A stretch of DNA of 64,000 bases, taken from positions 5,685 to 69,684 of the forward strand of contig CAYFQT010000026.1 of NCBI GenBank assembly GCA_964345445.1, given 5' to 3'. Numbering within the stretch: position 1 is the first letter of the stretch; every line of letters begins with the position of its first letter. Origin of the DNA: an uncultured Candidatus Saccharibacteria bacterium. Lineage in GTDB: Bacteria; Patescibacteriota; CPR2_A; CAYFQT01. Both the position numbers and the translations under genes were made by a program. Under the pieces are notes generated by a model. It worked only from the letters and a program-made list of their open reading frames with translations. It was not told the DNA's origin and searched no databases. This document shows, one piece after another, positions 920-49,867 of this stretch.

Positions 920-2749
920 TTGACAAGTGTAAAAGAAATAGAAAAATTTCTTAGAAAAATTTTAGCTGCAATAAAATTTTTCTTTCTTTTCCTATTCCGA
1001 TTAGTTTATGCTATATTTTCAGGTTTTTCAAATTGGTTTCGAATTTTAAGAAAAATTGAACTAAAAGATCGAAAAATATTTTTAGCAATTAAAATTTTTC
1101 AAAAATTCACTGCCTTAGAATTAATAATTATAAGTATACTTTTTTTAATTATTATGATCTGTTCTGGAATTTTGGTTTGGGAAAATTATATTCAATCCAC
1201 CTCTATAGTTCCGGCTAAAGGGGGCAGTTACATTGAAGGAATTGTAGGAGAGCCAAAATATGTAAATCCTCTTCTATCTTCTGGAAATGATACAGATATG
1301 GTTTTATGTTCTTTGGTTTTTTCTGGGCTTACTAAATATGATAAAAATGGAGAACTTGTTGGAGATCTTTCTGCAAAATGGGATGTTTCTTCTGACAATA
1401 AAACATATACTTTTTATTTACGCGATTCAGTCCTGTGGCACGACAAGCAACCGTTTAATGCTGATGATGTAGTTTATACTATTGAATATATTCAAAATCC
1501 AGATTTTACAGGAACTTTGTCTAGTATTTGGAATAATGTTAAAGTTGAAAAGATAGATGATTTAACAATTAAATTTACCCTGCCGAGTGTATATACAGAT
1601 TTTCTTTCTAATACTACTTTGGGGATTTTACCTAGGCATTATTTGCAGAATGTTCCCCCAGGCAACATTTGGGGAGCCGATTTTAATTTGCAGCCTGTTG
1701 GCACTGGTCCTTATAAATTTTCCGAGATCAAAAAAGATAAATTTGGGCATATAGAATCAATTACTTTAATGGTTAATAATGATTACTATATAAAAAGAGC
1801 TTATATTAACAGAATAACTTTTAAATTTTATTCTCATTATATGCAGGTTTTGGAAGCATATAGGAAAAAAGAGATTCAAGGGTTAGATTATATTTCTCCT
1901 GAAGATGTATCAAACGTTAATGATTGGAAGGGGGTAAATTTACATAAAGCCATTCTTCCTCAATATACAGCCGTATTTTTTAACGTTAAATCAAAAAGTC
2001 TCAAAGACAATAAGACAAGAAAAGCTTTAGCATATGCAGTAGATAAAGAAAAAATTCTAGAGGAGATATTACATGGTGAAGGTCAATTGGTAGATACGCC
2101 AATATTGCCAGGATTTTTAGGTCATAACCCAGATGTTAAAAAATATTCATTTAATTTAGAAGAAGCAAAAAAAATATTACAACAAGAAGGTTGGGAAGAT
2201 GTAGATGGTGATGGAATTTTAGAGAGAAATGACGTAAGATTAGAATTTAATTTATTAACAGTTGATAAATCTTTATATGGGAGAACTGCTCAGATTATAT
2301 CTGAGAGTTGGAATAGTATAGGAGCTCATGTAGAAGTTATAATTTATGATAGTAAAACTTTACAGCAGGATTATATTCATTCTAGGAATTATGACGCTTT
2401 GTTATATGGAGAAAATTTAGGGCATGATCCAGACCCATATCCTTATTGGCATTCTACCCAAGCTGAAGGATCTGGTTTAAATCTTTCTTCTTTTTCGGAA
2501 AGAAAAGTAGATGAAATTTTAGAAGAGGCTAGGCAATCAATAGATAGTGATTTCCGATCTTTAAAATATATAGAATTTCAAAATATTATTGCTGAGGAAT
2601 TACCGGCTATTTTCCTCTTCAATCCCAATTATATCTATGGAGTTTCTGAAAAAGTGAAAGGAATTGAACTTGGAAATATTGTTTTACCTTATGAGAGATT
2701 TTGGGGGGTGTCAGATTGGTATATAAAGACTAAAAGAGCGCCTAAATAA
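920..2749 (+). CDS. ABC transporter substrate-binding protein, family 5 (OppA/DppA-like), with N-terminal membrane anchor
   Basis: 609 aa. TTG start follows the AAAAGGAGG RBS at 909-916. Hydrophobic N-terminus, then family-5 SBP features such as LTKYDKNGELVGDLAKWDVS. Confidence 0.7.
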   Translation: MTSVKEIEKFLRKILAAIKFFFLFLFRLVYAIFSGFSNWFRILRKIELKDRKIFLAIKIFQKFTALELIIISILFLIIMICSGILVWENYIQSTSIVPAKGGSYIEGIVGEPKYVNPLLSSGNDTDMVLCSLVFSGLTKYDKNGELVGDLSAKWDVSSDNKTYTFYLRDSVLWHDKQPFNADDVVYTIEYIQNPDFTGTLSSIWNNVKVEKIDDLTIKFTLPSVYTDFLSNTTLGILPRHYLQNVPPGNIWGADFNLQPVGTGPYKFSEIKKDKFGHIESITLMVNNDYYIKRAYINRITFKFYSHYMQVLEAYRKKEIQGLDYISPEDVSNVNDWKGVNLHKAILPQYTAVFFNVKSKSLKDNKTRKALAYAVDKEKILEEILHGEGQLVDTPILPGFLGHNPDVKKYSFNLEEAKKILQQEGWEDVDGDGILERNDVRLEFNLLTVDKSLYGRTAQIISESWNSIGAHVEVIIYDSKTLQQDYIHSRNYDALLYGENLGHDPDPYPYWHSTQAEGSGLNLSSFSERKVDEILEEARQSIDSDFRSLKYIEFQNIIAEELPAIFLFNPNYIYGVSEKVKGIELGNIVLPYERFWGVSDWYIKTKRAPK

Positions 2750-2787
2750 TACTGGAAAAAATTTTCAATTTTTTTTCAACCCGCCGT

Positions 2788-2871
2788 GCCCTGGTGCTGA
2801 AACTGGTAGACAGGCGTGGTTCAGGACCACGTGCTCAAAAGAGCGTGAGAGTTCGAATCTCTCCCAGGGCA
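2788..2871 (+). tRNA. tRNA-Leu (anticodon CAG), type II with long variable arm
   Basis: Acceptor GCCCTGG/CCAGGGC with discriminator A. Anticodon loop ttCAGga, long variable arm, T-loop TTCGAAT. Confidence 0.8.
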
Positions 2872-2921
2872 TTTTGCCAAATGAAGCCAAAATAGTATAA
2901 TTGAACTAGTTCATTCAATTA

Positions 2922-3005
2922 GCCCCCGTGGCGGAACTGGCATACGCGACAGGTTGAGGGCCTGTGTCCTTTTAGGACGTACTGGTTCAAATCCAGTCGG
3001 GGGCA
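2922..3005 (+). tRNA. tRNA-Leu (anticodon GAG), type II
   Basis: Acceptor GCCCCCG/CGGGGGC with discriminator A. Anticodon loop ttGAGgg, variable-arm hairpin gtcct-ttt-aggac, T-loop TTCAAAT. Confidence 0.7.
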
Positions 3006-3043
3006 CTGCGTTAGAAGAAACCCTTCAATTATTTTATCTTTAA

Positions 3044-3117
3044 GGGTGCTTAGCTCAGTTGGTTAGAGTGACTGGTTTACATCCAGTAGGTCGGGGGTTC
3101 GAATCCCTCAGCACCCA
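3044..3117 (+). tRNA. tRNA-Val (anticodon TAC)
   Basis: GGGTGCTTAGCTCAGTTGG...cloverleaf. Anticodon loop ttTACat, T-arm GGGGGTTCGAATCCCTC, acceptor GGGTGCT/AGCACCC. Confidence 0.85.
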
Positions 3118-3137
3118 CGTCGAAACAAAATTTAAGC

Positions 3138-3165
3138 TTTCGCCCCGAAAGCTTTCGGGGCGAAA
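3138..3165. terminator. Perfect 28-nt palindrome (12-bp GC-rich stem, AGCT loop) between tRNA-Val and tRNA-Phe. Hairpin, possibly a terminator or processing site.
   Basis: TTTCGCCCCGAAAGCTTTCGGGGCGAAA equals its own reverse complement. Confidence 0.5.
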
Positions 3166-3186
3166 ATGAAAGGTTTGTTTGGACGC

Positions 3187-3262
3187 GCCGAGGTAGCTCA
3201 GGTAGTAGAGCACAGGTCTGAAAAACCTGGTGTCCCCAGTGCAAGTCTGGGCCTCGGCACCA
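3187..3262 (+). tRNA. tRNA-Phe (anticodon GAA), with encoded CCA
   Basis: Acceptor GCCGAGG/CCTCGGC + A + CCA. D-arm TAGCTCAGGTAGTAGAGC, anticodon loop ctGAAaa. The T-loop tgcaagt is atypical (G at position 55). Confidence 0.75.
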
Positions 3263-3562
3263 CGTCGAAGTTATTCCACTATACATCCTGCTTCAGCAGG
3301 CTGCACCGCTCCATAAACTTCTCCTCTTTCTACAAAATACTAAAGTATTTTGTCGAGTTGAAAAAATTCTAAAGAATTTTTGCGAAAAAGGAGCATTGCT
3401 GAAGATGGAAACAAAATTTTTGAAGAAAATTTTGTGGAATCGGAGGTTGAAAATTTTACCCGTAAAAATTCTTCAGAATTTTTACGGAAAAGGAGAAGTA
3501 AAGCGAAAATTGGAATGATTTCTTAGGAAGAAATCATAAAAATGGCAGCTTTACTTCGACGT

Positions 3563-3635
3563 GCGGGTGTAGCTCAGTTGATAGAGCATCTGCTTGCCAT
3601 GCAGAAGGTCGTGGGTTTAAGTCCCATCACCCGCT
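3563..3635 (+). tRNA. tRNA-Gly (anticodon GCC)
   Basis: GCGGGTGTAGCTCAGTTGATAGAGC. Anticodon loop ttGCCat, discriminator U as expected for Gly. The overlapping ORF 3542-3817 translates the tRNA (AGVAQLIEH... artefact). Confidence 0.85.
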
Positions 3636-3817
3636 TCGTCGGAATAAACTTCCAGCTTTTGCGAATTTGTTTTACAAATTTGCTACCACTTTCAGTTTAT
3701 TCCTCCTCTTTCGCAAAAAATCTGACGATTTTTTGCAAGACAAAAACATTAGGTGACCTATTTTTCCTGTTTATAAGCGGGGCAGGGTCCGCGGTCTGCC
3801 TGCCCGCCAAAGCCTAG

Positions 3818-3889
3818 GGCCTCGTGACCGAGTGGTTTAGGTAGCGGTCTGCAAAACCGCGTACGGCGGTTCAAATCCGCCCGAGGCCT
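3818..3889 (+). tRNA. tRNA-Cys (anticodon GCA)
   Basis: Acceptor GGCCTCG/CGAGGCC with discriminator U (Cys-typical). Anticodon loop ctGCAaa, T-arm GGCGGTTCAAATCCGCC. Confidence 0.8.
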
Positions 3890-3894
3890 CTGAC

Positions 3895-3990
3895 ACTGGC
3901 AGGCGGGCCTGCCCGCTAATGCAAGCATAGCGTTGCAGGCGGGCAAAACCGAGTACAGCATGCGAATCCGCTCCAGGCCTCCGTAATTAA
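3895..3990 (+). pseudogene. Degenerate tRNA-Cys-like 3' half (tRNA remnant) fused to a GC-rich dispersed motif
   Basis: gcaaaaccgagtacagcatgcgaatccgctccaggcctcc is about 70% identical to the 3' half of the upstream tRNA-Cys but does not form a cloverleaf. Confidence 0.4.
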
Positions 3991-4019
3991 CTCATCTAAG
4001 GCATAATCAGAAAAAATAA

Positions 4020-4103
4020 GGGCGAGTGGCGGAATTGGTATACGCGCGACACTTAAAATGTCGTCCTGTTTACAGGGTGAGGGTTCGAGTCCCTCCTTGC
4101 CCA
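4020..4103 (+). tRNA. tRNA-Leu (anticodon TAA), type II
   Basis: Acceptor GGGCGAG/CTTGCCC with discriminator A. Anticodon stem CGACA/TGTCG with loop ctTAAaa, long variable arm, T-arm GAGGGTTCGAGTCCCTC. Confidence 0.8.
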
Positions 4104-4368
4104 CGTCCAAATAAACTTTCAGTTTTCGCGATCTCACAAAGTGAAATCGCTGTCACTTACAGTTTATTCCTCCTCTTTCTTCAAAATACTAAAGTATTTT
4201 GACGAGTAAATATAATACTTCCGACTTTCATGATTTTGTAGAACAAAATCGTTCTTTTTTAAAAAATCCTTGATTTTTTGATTTATAAGACTTAAAATAA
4301 AATATCTATAAAGAACATTTACAATTAAATACAAGACGAAAATCAAAATTTTAAAGGAGTGATAGTTA

Positions 4369-26384: not shown

Positions 26385-27007
26385 TGGATCTATTAGAGAT
26401 TTTTGAAAAAGAGCAAATAAAAAATAAACCCCTTCAAATAAATCCTGGAGATAAAATTAAAGTTTACCAGAAAATTCAAGAAGGGGGGAAGACTCGAACC
26501 CAAAGTTTTGAGGGTATTGTTATTCGGAAAAGAGTAATGAAGACAGCTAGGGCTAATTTTACTGTGCGGAAGATCGTTTCAGGCATTGGTGTAGAAAAAA
26601 CATTTTTTATTCATTCTCCTAATATTACTAAGATTAAAATTACAAAAAAAGGAAAGACAAGAAGAGCTAAACTTTATTATATTAGAGAAAGGCGGGGTAG
26701 AGCTGCAAAAATGAGAGAAAAAGAGGGGGAATTAAGTGAGTGGGAAATTGCAACAACAGAGCCGGCAAAACAGCCCACTGAAACGCCAAAAGAGAAAATT
26801 GAAGAAAAACCAGAAGTTAAGGAAAAATCCCAAAAACCCTTCTCCACTAAAACTTCAGAGGGCAGGGTAGAAAAGGAAGGGTCAAAAGAGAAGAAAAAAG
26901 AAGAGATTAAGGATGAAAAGAAAGAATCAAAACAAAAAGAGACAAAAACATCCTCTTCTGCTGATATAACTTCAAAGGATAAAAAGAAAAGAAAGGAAAA
27001 ATCCTAA
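26385..27007 (+). CDS. rplS: 50S ribosomal protein L19 with long K/E-rich C-terminal extension
   Basis: The L19 core (...GDKIKVYQKIQEGGKTRTQSFEGIVIRKR...FTVRKI..GIGVEKTF..HSP.I..I) ends near R134 and about 90 aa of KE-rich tail follow. Start ATG 26385 with GAGG RBS. A TTGCCT-17-TATAAA promoter lies at 26263-26295. Confidence 0.85.
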
Positions 27008-48753: not shown

Positions 48754-49365
48754 TTGTTGAATTACTACAATTGTATATTTGAAGGAATTTTTATGTATTT
48801 TATTCAAAAGTTTATCCAAAAATATCAAACTCAAATAGGAATTTTTTTGATAATCTTGATAGCAATAGGTGGGGGAATAATTTTATTTTCTTATCAAAGA
48901 CCTGAACCTGTTGAGATTAAAGAAGCTGAAAGCAGTCAAGAAATTAAAGTAGATATAGAAGGAGCAGTGGAACATCCAGGTGTCTATACTTTCTATCAAG
49001 GAGATAGAGTAGAGGATGCTATCTTTGCTGCTGGTCCAAAAGAAGATGCTGATTTATCCAAAGTAGAGATGAGTTTAGCAGCAAAACTTATAGATGGGCA
49101 AAGGATAATTGTACCCAGTCGAGAAGAGGTAGCAGGTATTACAACAAGTTCTTCAGTAAGTTCCTCGGAAGGAAAAATTAATATTAATACTGCTTCTTTG
49201 GGTGAGTTAGATACTCTGCCTGGAATAGGGGAGAAGACAGCACAAAAGATTATTGACTGGCGGGATACTTATGGAGGATTTAGAACTATCGAGGATATTA
49301 AAGATGTTAAAGGAATAGGAGATAAGAAATTTGAAGATATGAAAGATTATATAACTGTGTATTAG
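48754..49365 (+). CDS. comEA: ComEA-like competence protein (SLBB + tandem helix-hairpin-helix)
   Basis: N-terminal TM. INTASLGELDTLPGIGEKTAQKIIDWRDTYGGFRTIEDIKDVKGIGDKKFEDMK is the HhH DNA-binding module. Confidence 0.7.
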   Translation: MLNYYNCIFEGIFMYFIQKFIQKYQTQIGIFLIILIAIGGGIILFSYQRPEPVEIKEAESSQEIKVDIEGAVEHPGVYTFYQGDRVEDAIFAAGPKEDADLSKVEMSLAAKLIDGQRIIVPSREEVAGITTSSSVSSSEGKININTASLGELDTLPGIGEKTAQKIIDWRDTYGGFRTIEDIKDVKGIGDKKFEDMKDYITVY

Positions 49366-49394: not shown

Positions 49395-49506
49395 TTCTTC
49401 GGGGTGAAATTGGAAGCCAATGCGACATGGGCGGGTGGCGACAATTTTATAAATTGGATCGTAGCCGAAGGCGGAGATCAGTTTGGTAGACATGTCCCGA
49501 AGATGT
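49395..49506 (+). ncRNA. GC-rich structured RNA domain immediately 5' of tRNA-Leu(TAG). Function unknown.
   Basis: The closing helix UCUUCGGG (49395-49403) pairs with CCCGAAGA (49496-49503). The interior is GC-rich in an AT-rich genome. A tmRNA-like 5' motif GGGG...CGAC-A-GGG is also present. Confidence 0.3.
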
Positions 49507-49596
49507 GCGGGCGTGGCGGAATTTGGAAGACGCGCGTGGCTTAGGACCACGTTCCCATTTATGGGATTGGAGGTTCAAGTCCTCCCGCCCGCACCA
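49507..49596 (+). tRNA. tRNA-Leu (anticodon TAG), type II, with encoded CCA
   Basis: Acceptor GCGGGCG/CGCCCGC + A + CCA. Anticodon stem CGTGG/CCACG with loop ctTAGga, variable hairpin CCCAT-tt-ATGGG, T-loop TTCAAGT. Confidence 0.85.
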
Positions 49597-49644
49597 TTGG
49601 GATACCCAAAAGGCATAGAGGTTCAAATCCTCTCACCGGCACCA
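49597..49644 (+). other. tRNA 3' fragment (variable-arm hairpin + T-arm + acceptor 3' strand + CCA) abutting tRNA-Leu
   Basis: TTGGG-ata-CCCAA, then AGAGGTTCAAATCCTCT, then CACCGGC-A-CCA. No matching 5' acceptor strand was found. A terminator hairpin GACC..GGTC + T7 follows at 49663-49686. Confidence 0.4.
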
Positions 49645-49727
49645 TAAAAATATAATTTAAAATGACCTAAGCGGTCTTTTTTTATTCCTAAAATCCTTGA
49701 CAAATAACCTATTTTAGGATATAATTA

Positions 49728-49867
49728 AGTAATTACATTTGAAAATATAATCAAAGATTACTTAATTACGCTTAAGCTGTGCGAAAGCACTAATTAGATA
49801 ATTACATTTGAAAATATAATCAAAAATTACTTAATTACGCTGGATTAAAATGTAAGCACTAATTGGG
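49728..49867. repeat. tandem direct repeat of about 70 bp (2 copies) containing TAATTAC/GTAATTA motifs
   Basis: TAATTACATTTGAAAATATAATCAAAGATTACTTAATTACGC...AGCACTAATT recurs at 49800 with one mismatch in the first 42 bp. Confidence 0.7.

Follow-up and report, generated by a model that had tools for sequence, protein, structure and literature searches.

A tRNA-Leu(UAG) gene that likely replaced an older tRNA-Leu gene from within at a Patescibacteria locus

In the 64-kb window analyzed here (64,000 nt of contig CAYFQT010000026.1 from an uncultured Candidatus Saccharibacteria bacterium), a complete tRNA-Leu(UAG) gene at 49507-49596 is enclosed by a GC-rich leader (49395-49506) and a 48-nt trailer (49597-49644), both of which contain pieces of another tRNA-Leu gene. 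We consider it likely that this locus records the replacement of a tRNA gene by insertion, with a working tRNA-Leu gene now lying inside a decayed older one. The outer remnants are homologous to tRNA-Leu genes of relatives and stand in collinear order, the outer gene fails to fold as a tRNA, and the same architecture is present in relatives, more decayed in some and less so in others. Within this series, the window appears to hold the nesting in a further decayed form. What the locus preserves is an evolutionary scar; it does not represent a new class of RNA.

The inner gene and the outer remnants

The inner gene lies on the plus strand, encodes its own CCA and belongs to what we call type A. 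It was called as Leu(tag) by ARAGORN and scored 53.6 bits against the Rfam tRNA family RF00005, for which the gathering score is 29. Both the cloverleaf score and the anticodon call thus place it in this family, and they bear out a preliminary description of the locus, made from the sequence alone, which had noted a well-formed tRNA-Leu(TAG) at these positions. Its 5' 43 nt are 93-95% identical to the type-A tRNAs of two related loci, L088 and L086. Judged from these features, 49507-49596 would be the functional gene of the locus.

The CCA of the inner gene is followed, with a spacing of 0 nt, by the trailer (TTGGGATACCCAAAAGGCATAGAGGTTCAAATCCTCTCACCGGCACCA, plus strand), the 3' remnant of the outer tRNA-Leu. 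In 5' to 3' order it comprises a remnant of the anticodon-stem 3' strand (UGGGA, 49598-49602), a variable region, a T-arm with a 5-bp stem (AGAGG/CCUCU) and the T-loop UUCAAAU, the 7-nt acceptor 3' strand CACCGGC, an A and a CCA. A profile built from three type-B tRNA-Leu(UAG) genes of relatives matched 49608-49643 in an nhmmer search of the whole window (E 2.4e-4), in agreement with the earlier view of this piece as the 3' part of another type-II tRNA, and a 17-nt stretch of the trailer is 94% identical to the outer 3' remnant of locus L103. Against Rfam, the trailer alone gave a 5'-truncated tRNA match under the gathering score (19 bits, E 0.056). Identity between trailer and inner gene is limited to the T-loop region (15 nt, 93%). 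The acceptor strands differ at three of seven positions (CACCGGC in the trailer, CGCCCGC in the inner gene), and one T-stem pair is changed on both strands with pairing kept (AGAGG/CCUCU versus GGAGG/CCUCC), which argues for an origin of the trailer from another functional gene and against a copy of its neighbor. The 25-nt 3' end of the trailer occurs once in the window.

A usable 5' acceptor partner for CACCGGC was not found in the window, as the preliminary description had also reported. Fourteen sites match G[CU][CU]GGUG, one of them being the trailer's own strand read on the minus strand; the contexts of the two other exact GCCGGTG sites were read, and no D-arm follows either. As an observation apart, intact class II tRNA-Leu genes with a trailer-like acceptor end do exist: a tRNA-Leu(CAG) gene in a GC-rich tRNA array of IMG/VR phage contigs (L123/L125) has a 3' part (AAAGGCCATAGAGGTTCGAATCCTCTCACCGGCACCA) almost identical to the trailer, which implies no relationship.

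Upstream of the inner gene, 49400-49419 (plus strand, CGGGGTGAAATTGGAAGCCA) aligns to type-B tRNA as the tail of the outer acceptor strand and the D-arm. Eighteen of 21 columns are identical to positions 5-25 of the intact type-B tRNA of locus L081 (shuffle p about 0.003), including an 11-nt exact core (GGTGAAATTGG) that equals type-B positions 9-19. A second D-arm remnant, corresponding to the 3' part of the D-loop and the D-stem 3' strand (TTTGGTAGACATG, 49482-49494, plus strand), has exact 10-nt matches to positions 16-26 of both type A and type B and to the outer gene of locus L118. The two pieces are separated by 62 nt of GC-rich filler (49420-49481, plus strand; 'ins1' in our annotation), in which we found no Rfam match and no likeness to the leaders of other loci; from its position, it would be a second insertion, in the outer D-loop. 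Part of it (about 49449-49470) shows a marginal inverted match to the anticodon and variable region of the inner tRNA (shuffle p 0.02-0.04). Further downstream, UCCCG at 49495-49499 and UGGGA at 49598-49602 occupy the places expected of the outer anticodon stem and flank AAGAUGU plus the inner tRNA, which suggests that the inner gene sits in the former outer anticodon loop. The outer remnants are thereby ordered as D-arm, anticodon-stem strands, variable region, T-arm and acceptor.

The leader is highly structured. Its predicted minimum free energy is -38.9 kcal/mol compared with -27.4 kcal/mol for shuffled sequences (z -3.5), and, as had been described before, this GC-rich segment of about 110 nt is closed by an 8-bp helix between UCUUCGGG (49396-49403, plus strand) and CCCGAAGA (49496-49503). 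The 5' strand of this helix occupies the position expected of the outer acceptor 5' strand and is not complementary to CACCGGC. The segment UCCCGAAGA (49495-49503, plus strand) has two mutually exclusive partners in the predicted folds. It can provide the 3' strand of the leader helix, with eight Watson-Crick pairs, or take part in a leader-trailer helix between UGUCCCGA (49493-49500) and UUGGGAUA (49597-49604), with eight pairs including two G-U; CCCGA is the stretch shared by both pairings. A further stretch of the leader, GGGCGGGTGGCGACAATTT, resembled a type-A 5' piece and was considered as a third nested layer, which we rejected after the likeness proved not significant against shuffles.

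Based on these data, the outer gene is a tRNA pseudogene, with a significant 3' part, a 5' part that stands out from shuffles and no cloverleaf. It is predicted to be dead because the acceptor place is taken by UUCUUCG, which does not allow pairing with CACCGGC, and because no anticodon loop is left.

Nested tRNA genes in related loci

The left neighbor of the tRNA, comEA (48793-49365, plus strand), served as the synteny anchor. This open reading frame encodes a competence protein with SLBB and helix-hairpin-helix regions; its homologues have the Pfam domains SLBB/HHH_3, and some are named ComEA by JGI. The order rsmD-like methyltransferase gene, comEA, tRNA-Leu(UAG) is kept in every relative whose sequence past comEA was recovered. 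In the window and the nearer relatives L081-L084, recG precedes rsmD, and in L093 and L094 comEA and the tRNA are separated by a small dodecin gene. A ComEA-based scan of genome contigs yielded distant ComEA homologues only (at most 50% identity), with no downstream tRNA at the 14 loci scanned, 11 from Patescibacteria and three from others, and was uninformative.

Two types of tRNA-Leu(UAG) occur at this position. Type A has the acceptor stem GCGGGCG/CGCCCGC and the anticodon stem CAUGG or GUGGC, and is present in the window, L086 and L088; the inner gene of L091 closely resembles it. In type B, the acceptor strand is GCCGCGG or GCCGAGG, the anticodon stem is CUAGG and the T-stem is AGAGG or GGAGG / CCUCU; this type is carried by L081, L084 and the inner gene of L092. 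The two types have no long identical stretches in common. Intact single genes stand at the same position as type A in L086 and L088 and as type B in L081 and L084, where a tRNA-Leu(tag) follows comEA. Together with the nearly intact outer gene of L091, the latter two provide counterparts, at the syntenic position, of the gene whose remnants surround the inner tRNA of the window.

Nesting was seen at five loci including the window; both allelic directions are represented, and the stage of decay varies. In L091, a structured insert of 64 nt comes after type-B positions 1-16 (GCCGCGGTGGTGAAAT), and behind it lie a complete type-A-like tRNA, a further 11 nt and the type-B remainder (CACGCTAGGCTTAGGACCTAG...CCGCGGCACCA), a tRNA-Leu(tag) ending in CCA, which places the inner gene in the outer D-loop. 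When the insert was deleted in silico, ARAGORN restored a tRNA-Leu(tag) in 99 of 112 junction choices. L092 shows the reverse arrangement, an intact type-B tRNA between 10 nt of a type-A 5' end and 19 nt of a type-A 3' end; the latter is 100% identical to the intact gene of its sister L088, and the same GGTTCGAATCCTG comes next in both. In L103 and L118, which are from the same sample, the inner tRNA lies in the anticodon region of a decaying outer gene and is bracketed by a long helix, with outer GCGCGGGTGGTGAAATTGGTAGACACG... upstream and remains of the outer variable region, T-loop and acceptor downstream. The outer gene of L103 is without the T-stem 3' strand, and an additional hairpin is inserted in that of L118. 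In each of the sister pairs L088/L092 and L104/L105, one site is empty and the other filled.

Private, perfectly palindromic GC-rich insertions were also observed in these outer genes (CCTGCCGGCAGG... in the D-loop of L103 and CCCACACACTAAAATAGTTTAGTGTGTGGG in the T-arm of L118), and small hairpin insertions seem to accumulate in the outer tRNA debris of these two loci.

Partial copies of the same type occur near some of the related tRNAs. A 45-nt copy with 93% identity begins 22 nt downstream of the L081 tRNA, and 16-nt 5' duplicates lie upstream of the tRNA in L084 and L105, the sister of the latter, L104, having an empty site. Inverted tRNA pieces are present in L084 and L092. A survey of flank self-similarity for 73 tRNAs of the fetched loci had a null contaminated by related loci and served only to choose examples.

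Replacement by insertion and its alternatives

According to the replacement that we propose, an older resident tRNA-Leu gene downstream of comEA would have resembled the type-B tRNA-Leu(UAG) of relatives at that position, and a DNA segment with a complete type-A tRNA-Leu(UAG) would have interrupted it in the anticodon region. The incoming gene would have taken over decoding while the interrupted gene decayed, its 5' part to the D-arm pieces at 49400-49419 and 49482-49494, split by the GC-rich insert, and its 3' part to the trailer. The inner gene might now be transcribed by read-through from comEA or from the old promoter. Transcription would end at the old weak terminator, a hairpin at 49664-49683 (plus strand; GACC at 49664-49667, GGUC at 49673-49676, then U7) that was probably the original terminator of the outer gene and is now used by the inner one. 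The intrinsic terminator described earlier at 49663-49686 is thus plausible in that a hairpin and U7 are present, but its 4-bp stem is weak (-6.4 kcal/mol, z -2.5) and a consensus terminator scan scored it under the tool's threshold and made no call. The two remnant halves would form the 5' leader and 3' trailer of the pre-tRNA, to be removed by RNase P and 3'-end processing. This role is suggested by the lack of the leader in near relatives, by leader sequences that are not shared and by a permissive Rfam scan of nine related loci that returned tRNAs only. The 8-bp leader helix and the leader-trailer helix would most simply be by-products of stem-loop insertion and of GC-rich tRNA debris; from the predicted folds, leader-trailer helices may help or insulate the independent folding of the inner tRNA.

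The insertion might have taken one of several routes. Foreign or paralogous tRNA-bearing DNA could have been captured at a break, an integrative element carrying a whole tRNA could have decayed, or template-switch events could have been involved, as suggested by the inverted tRNA pieces in L084 and L092. Selection would keep only those insertions that bring a working cognate tRNA.

Several observations weigh against this replacement. The short 5' remnant was not significant in a hidden Markov model search of the whole window (E 27), and its support consists of its position and the shuffle test (p about 0.003). The perfect 8-bp helix in place of the acceptor 5' strand is not explained by simple decay, and a leader that folds better than its shuffles leaves room for a selected structure. 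Since the outer anticodon is gone, the outer gene can be taken as a UAG isoacceptor by analogy with the relatives. A pre-insertion allele, that is, an intact gene ending in ...CACCGGCACCA / ...AAAGGCATAGAGGTTCAAATCCTCTCACCGGCACCA, was not recovered from a close relative, and there is no recombinase near the locus in the window.

The trailer could instead be the mark of a classical integrase, whose displaced host 3' part persisted as an attR-type fragment and came to abut the tRNA when the element was later deleted. We regard this as improbable. It is true that tRNA genes are common integration targets and that attR-type fragments are widespread (PMC9897764), and the tRNA gene fragments that integrating elements leave behind are a familiar finding (Reiter 1989 and Williams 2002, as cited in PMC9897764). 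Like such fragments, the trailer is a CCA-ended partial tRNA 3' piece beside an intact tRNA, has a hypervariable downstream flank, represents non-functional debris and can mislead annotation. The right flank is variable in every relative, L088 has a serine recombinase beside an abutting T-loop fragment, and other Patescibacteria loci carry perfect 16-19-nt repeats of tRNA 3' ends 120-250 nt downstream. However, the usual pattern has the element between the restored gene and a duplicated 3' end, whereas at the window locus the spacing is 0 nt, no integrase is present and the trailer does not repeat the adjacent 3' end, given the acceptor and T-stem differences described above. A hybrid of host and element tRNA would need matching acceptor strands, and the intact gene is type A throughout. 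Because the trailer comes from a different tRNA-Leu allele and collinear outer 5' pieces lie on the opposite side, with a whole cognate tRNA inside the old gene, we do not interpret it as a classical attR duplicate; an integrase scar would leave unexplained the upstream 5' remnants as well as L091 and L092, in which both outer halves surround a whole inner gene. The preliminary description had suggested the scar of an element integrated at a tRNA 3' end, of which we retain the scar, as one of a gene within a gene, and not the attR-type 3'-end integration.

A purely local origin, in which deletions or template switches at a tandem of two or three paralogous tRNA-Leu genes left a single intact gene and pieces, with no insertion, appears quite improbable to us. 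The same-type partial copies near the tRNAs of L081, L084 and L105, the inverted pieces in L084 and L092 and a tandem degenerate tRNA-Cys copy in the window all point in this direction. The outer halves of L091, on the other hand, join to a complete tRNA, for which a tandem origin would require two precisely placed deletions, the sister pairs display an empty next to a filled site, and we found no relative with intact tandem A and B genes at the locus.

It is very unlikely, in our view, that the locus encodes a functional composite RNA, either with the leader as a cis-regulatory or processing element or a small RNA, or with the outer halves as a two-piece tRNA-like molecule held by the leader-trailer helix after excision of the inner tRNA. 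The folding of the leader, the clean T-arm and CCA of the trailer and a leader-trailer helix of 7 to about 20 bp around the inner tRNA in all four nested loci would fit such a molecule. Yet the outer gene lacks both a 5' complement to its acceptor strand and an anticodon loop, the window offers it no matching partner at another place, and the outer defects differ and progress from locus to locus (the T-stem in L103, the hairpin in L118, the 10 and 19 nt of L092). The leader is missing in L081 (ComEA 77% identical), the nearest relative with the intergenic region recovered, and in the 80 nt available after comEA in L085 (ComEA 79% identical), and the non-tRNA parts of the leaders have no sequence common between loci. 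A search of the leader against Rfam gave no match even at E<=10, and signal recognition particle RNA, 5S, 6S, riboswitches and ribozymes were dismissed as its identity on this basis. With ARAGORN and Rfam both run, no covariance-model match explained the whole region, and we therefore do not follow the earlier suggestion of an unrecognized small RNA, which is also at odds with the absence of the leader from L081 and from that stretch of L085.

Similarities to known RNAs with interrupted or composite genes are likewise partial. The locus has in common with transfer-messenger RNA (tmRNA) a GC-rich structured segment together with a T-arm, an acceptor 3' strand and a CCA, and the letters of the tmRNA-like motif GGGG...CGAC-A-GGG noted earlier are present in the leader. 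Unlike in tmRNA, there is no paired acceptor stem, no G3-U70 and no tag reading frame; the G-C/U-C/U-G-G-U-G 5' strand that CACCGGC would need is absent nearby, ARAGORN called only tRNAs and no match to the tmRNA clan of Rfam was obtained even at E<=10. Split, permuted and multi-intron tRNA genes that are disrupted yet functional are found in Archaea and red algae (PMC3218864, PMC4033280). They resemble the window locus in the interruption of the D-loop or anticodon region and in a leader-trailer helix that joins the flanks, but they are matured by a bulge-helix-bulge-specific splicing endonuclease and a ligase, whereas the outer gene of the window is a bacterial pseudogene with neither an acceptor 5' strand nor an anticodon loop and with lineage-specific decay. 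Both the bulge-helix-bulge splicing endonuclease and the ligase are archaeal or eukaryal enzymes. A split or permuted functional tRNA, as the preliminary description had also envisaged, is not supported, since the acceptor position (UUCUUCG) is not complementary to CACCGGC, a search of the 64-kb window gave no usable partner, and the anticodon loop is replaced by AAGAUGU and the inner tRNA. Group I introns have recently been described in anticodon loops of Patescibacteria tRNAs (PMC13011429). They share the phylum and, with the window and L103/L118, the anticodon-loop insertion site; the inserts considered here differ from them in being about 100-200 nt long and largely a complete tRNA, with outer exons that are not conserved. 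No match to Intron_gpI was obtained at the gathering score for the window, at E<=10 for the locus itself, or at E<=1 for nine related loci.

We find it barely credible that the flanks resemble tRNA by chance or that the contig is a metagenomic chimera joined at a conserved tRNA k-mer. The source is apparently a metagenome-assembled genome, and the 5' remnant by itself is not significant. The trailer match is significant, however, the architecture recurs in independent NCBI, JGI and ENA assemblies, L103 and L118 have the same architecture yet differ in their private insertions, and types A and B offer no long identical stretch to seed a chimera.

Replacement by insertion, our preferred reading, could have a more specific basis. 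The nested tRNA-Leu genes could be traces of a tRNA cassette in Patescibacteria that is self-compensating and targets cognate genes, a rather unlikely idea at present. Such a cassette could be a short piece of DNA in which an inverted repeat flanks a tRNA and which enters the loops of a resident gene for the same tRNA; it would be tolerated because it replaces the function that it destroys, and alleles A and B could thus overwrite each other both ways. In a weaker form, recurrent breaks at tRNA genes could have been repaired with tRNA-bearing DNA that the cells acquired from relatives.

In the open-access full-text literature we found no description of a cognate tRNA nested in a tRNA remnant, which is not proof of novelty. 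With respect to annotation, one tRNA-Leu(UAG) and pseudogene debris should be recorded at this locus and not a tmRNA-like or new small RNA. Its interest lies in the recurrence of the nesting and in its occurrence in both allelic directions in Patescibacteria. Based on the five loci, single-copy tRNA genes in the reduced genomes of this group appear to be overwritten from within. Should this overwriting be targeted, and more than the outcome of filtering by selection, it would constitute a new route for the horizontal replacement of an essential RNA gene. The locus also provides a test case for the processing of a pre-tRNA with tRNA-like flanks in organisms with few RNases.

Neighboring genes and further tRNA debris

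The genome of the window is low in GC (about 32%). Full-length relatives of the window ComEA, RecG and neighboring proteins are from Patescibacteria/Microgenomates metagenome bins; an exact look-up of the window ComEA gave no record. Open reading frames within about 3 kb of the locus encode RecG, the RsmD-like protein, ComEA, an EamA transporter, trigger factor and ClpP. From the comEA stop at 49365, the 112-nt GC-rich leader, the tRNA, the 48-nt trailer and the weak hairpin follow in this order. No sigma-70-like promoter was found by a scan between comEA and the tRNA. Upstream of the EamA transporter gene, at 49697-49725, there is a perfect sigma-70 consensus promoter (TTGACA-17-TATAAT), after which a repeat of about 45 nt occurs twice at a spacing of some 70 nt (taattacatttgaaaatataatcaaa.attacttaattacgct, within 49697-49850); promoter and repeats all lie inside a 390-nt region 5' of this gene.

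From the comparison of gene orders, the locus clearly appears to be a recombination hot spot, which fits the proposed replacement. The right-hand neighbor of the tRNA differs in every relative, and the EamA-tig-clpP block, which lies 3' of the tRNA in the window, is located elsewhere in the 77% relative, with no tRNA upstream of it there. Such a variable downstream gene, together with the serine recombinase by the L088 tRNA, is a feature of attR-type integration. In L088 (3204-4641; in L092, 2928-2940), the type-A tRNA-Leu runs directly into GGTTCGAATCCTGCCTCCCCAGCCA, which is the end of another tRNA from T-loop to CCA, and in L088 a large serine recombinase gene (Resolvase/Recombinase/Zn_ribbon_recom) comes next on the opposite strand; recombinase and tRNA end are probably an integrated element at the same hot spot.

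Repeated tRNA 3' ends were observed next to other tRNAs. In the Patescibacteria contigs L117 (6529-6674), L106 (2023-2275) and L109 (6823-6958), a structured insert of about 115-240 nt separates a tRNA-Lys(CUU) or tRNA-Cys from a downstream repeat, a perfect 16-19 nt of the tRNA's own 3' end starting from the T-loop. The inserts of L117 and L109 have ...GGTCGCG... and a TGTGACC end in common, and that of L106 is similar at its start and different at its end. The same ...GGTCGCGAAAA...TTATTTGTGACC element is also present 3' of tRNA-Leu(UAG) in L097/L109. These units look like miniature integrative elements or their relics.

A prophage or an element of the size of an integrative and conjugative element between the tRNA cluster at 2787-4104 of the window and the trailer was ruled out, as the 3' end of the trailer is unique in the window and no tRNA-Leu of the cluster has its acceptor strand. 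Scans of viral contigs with the type-A tRNA, the type-B tRNA and the trailer yielded nothing or unrelated GC-rich phage tRNA arrays.

The window contains a second tRNA pseudogene, which indicates turnover of tRNA genes in this genome and is in line with the proposed replacement. A degenerate, nearly full-length copy of tRNA-Cys lies at about 3905-3982, after tRNA-Cys(GCA) at 3818-3890. It keeps the GCA anticodon context, six of its seven acceptor pairs can still form, and neither ARAGORN nor Rfam called it. The upstream flank of the tRNA-Cys gene (about 3788-3800) holds a 9-nt anticodon-stem piece (GCGGTCTGC). Nesting was considered here as well and rejected, the alignment revealing a tandem degenerate copy. 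Weak matches to the tRNA-Leu profile at 26485-26511 (minus strand, TTTGGGTTCGAGTCTTCCCC, E 1.1) and 2084-2101 (plus strand, CAATTGGTAGATACGCCA, E 1.9) may be further tRNA debris or chance. Finally, the spacers of the tRNA cluster (Leu, Leu, Val, Phe, Gly, Cys, Leu; 3118-4200) contain recurring motifs after the tRNAs, for example, CACGTCGAA and CGTCGGAATAAAC, and repeated AT-rich hairpins (caaaatactaaagtattttg, gcaaaaaatctgacgattttttgc), which may serve in processing or termination or may belong to a small family of repeats.

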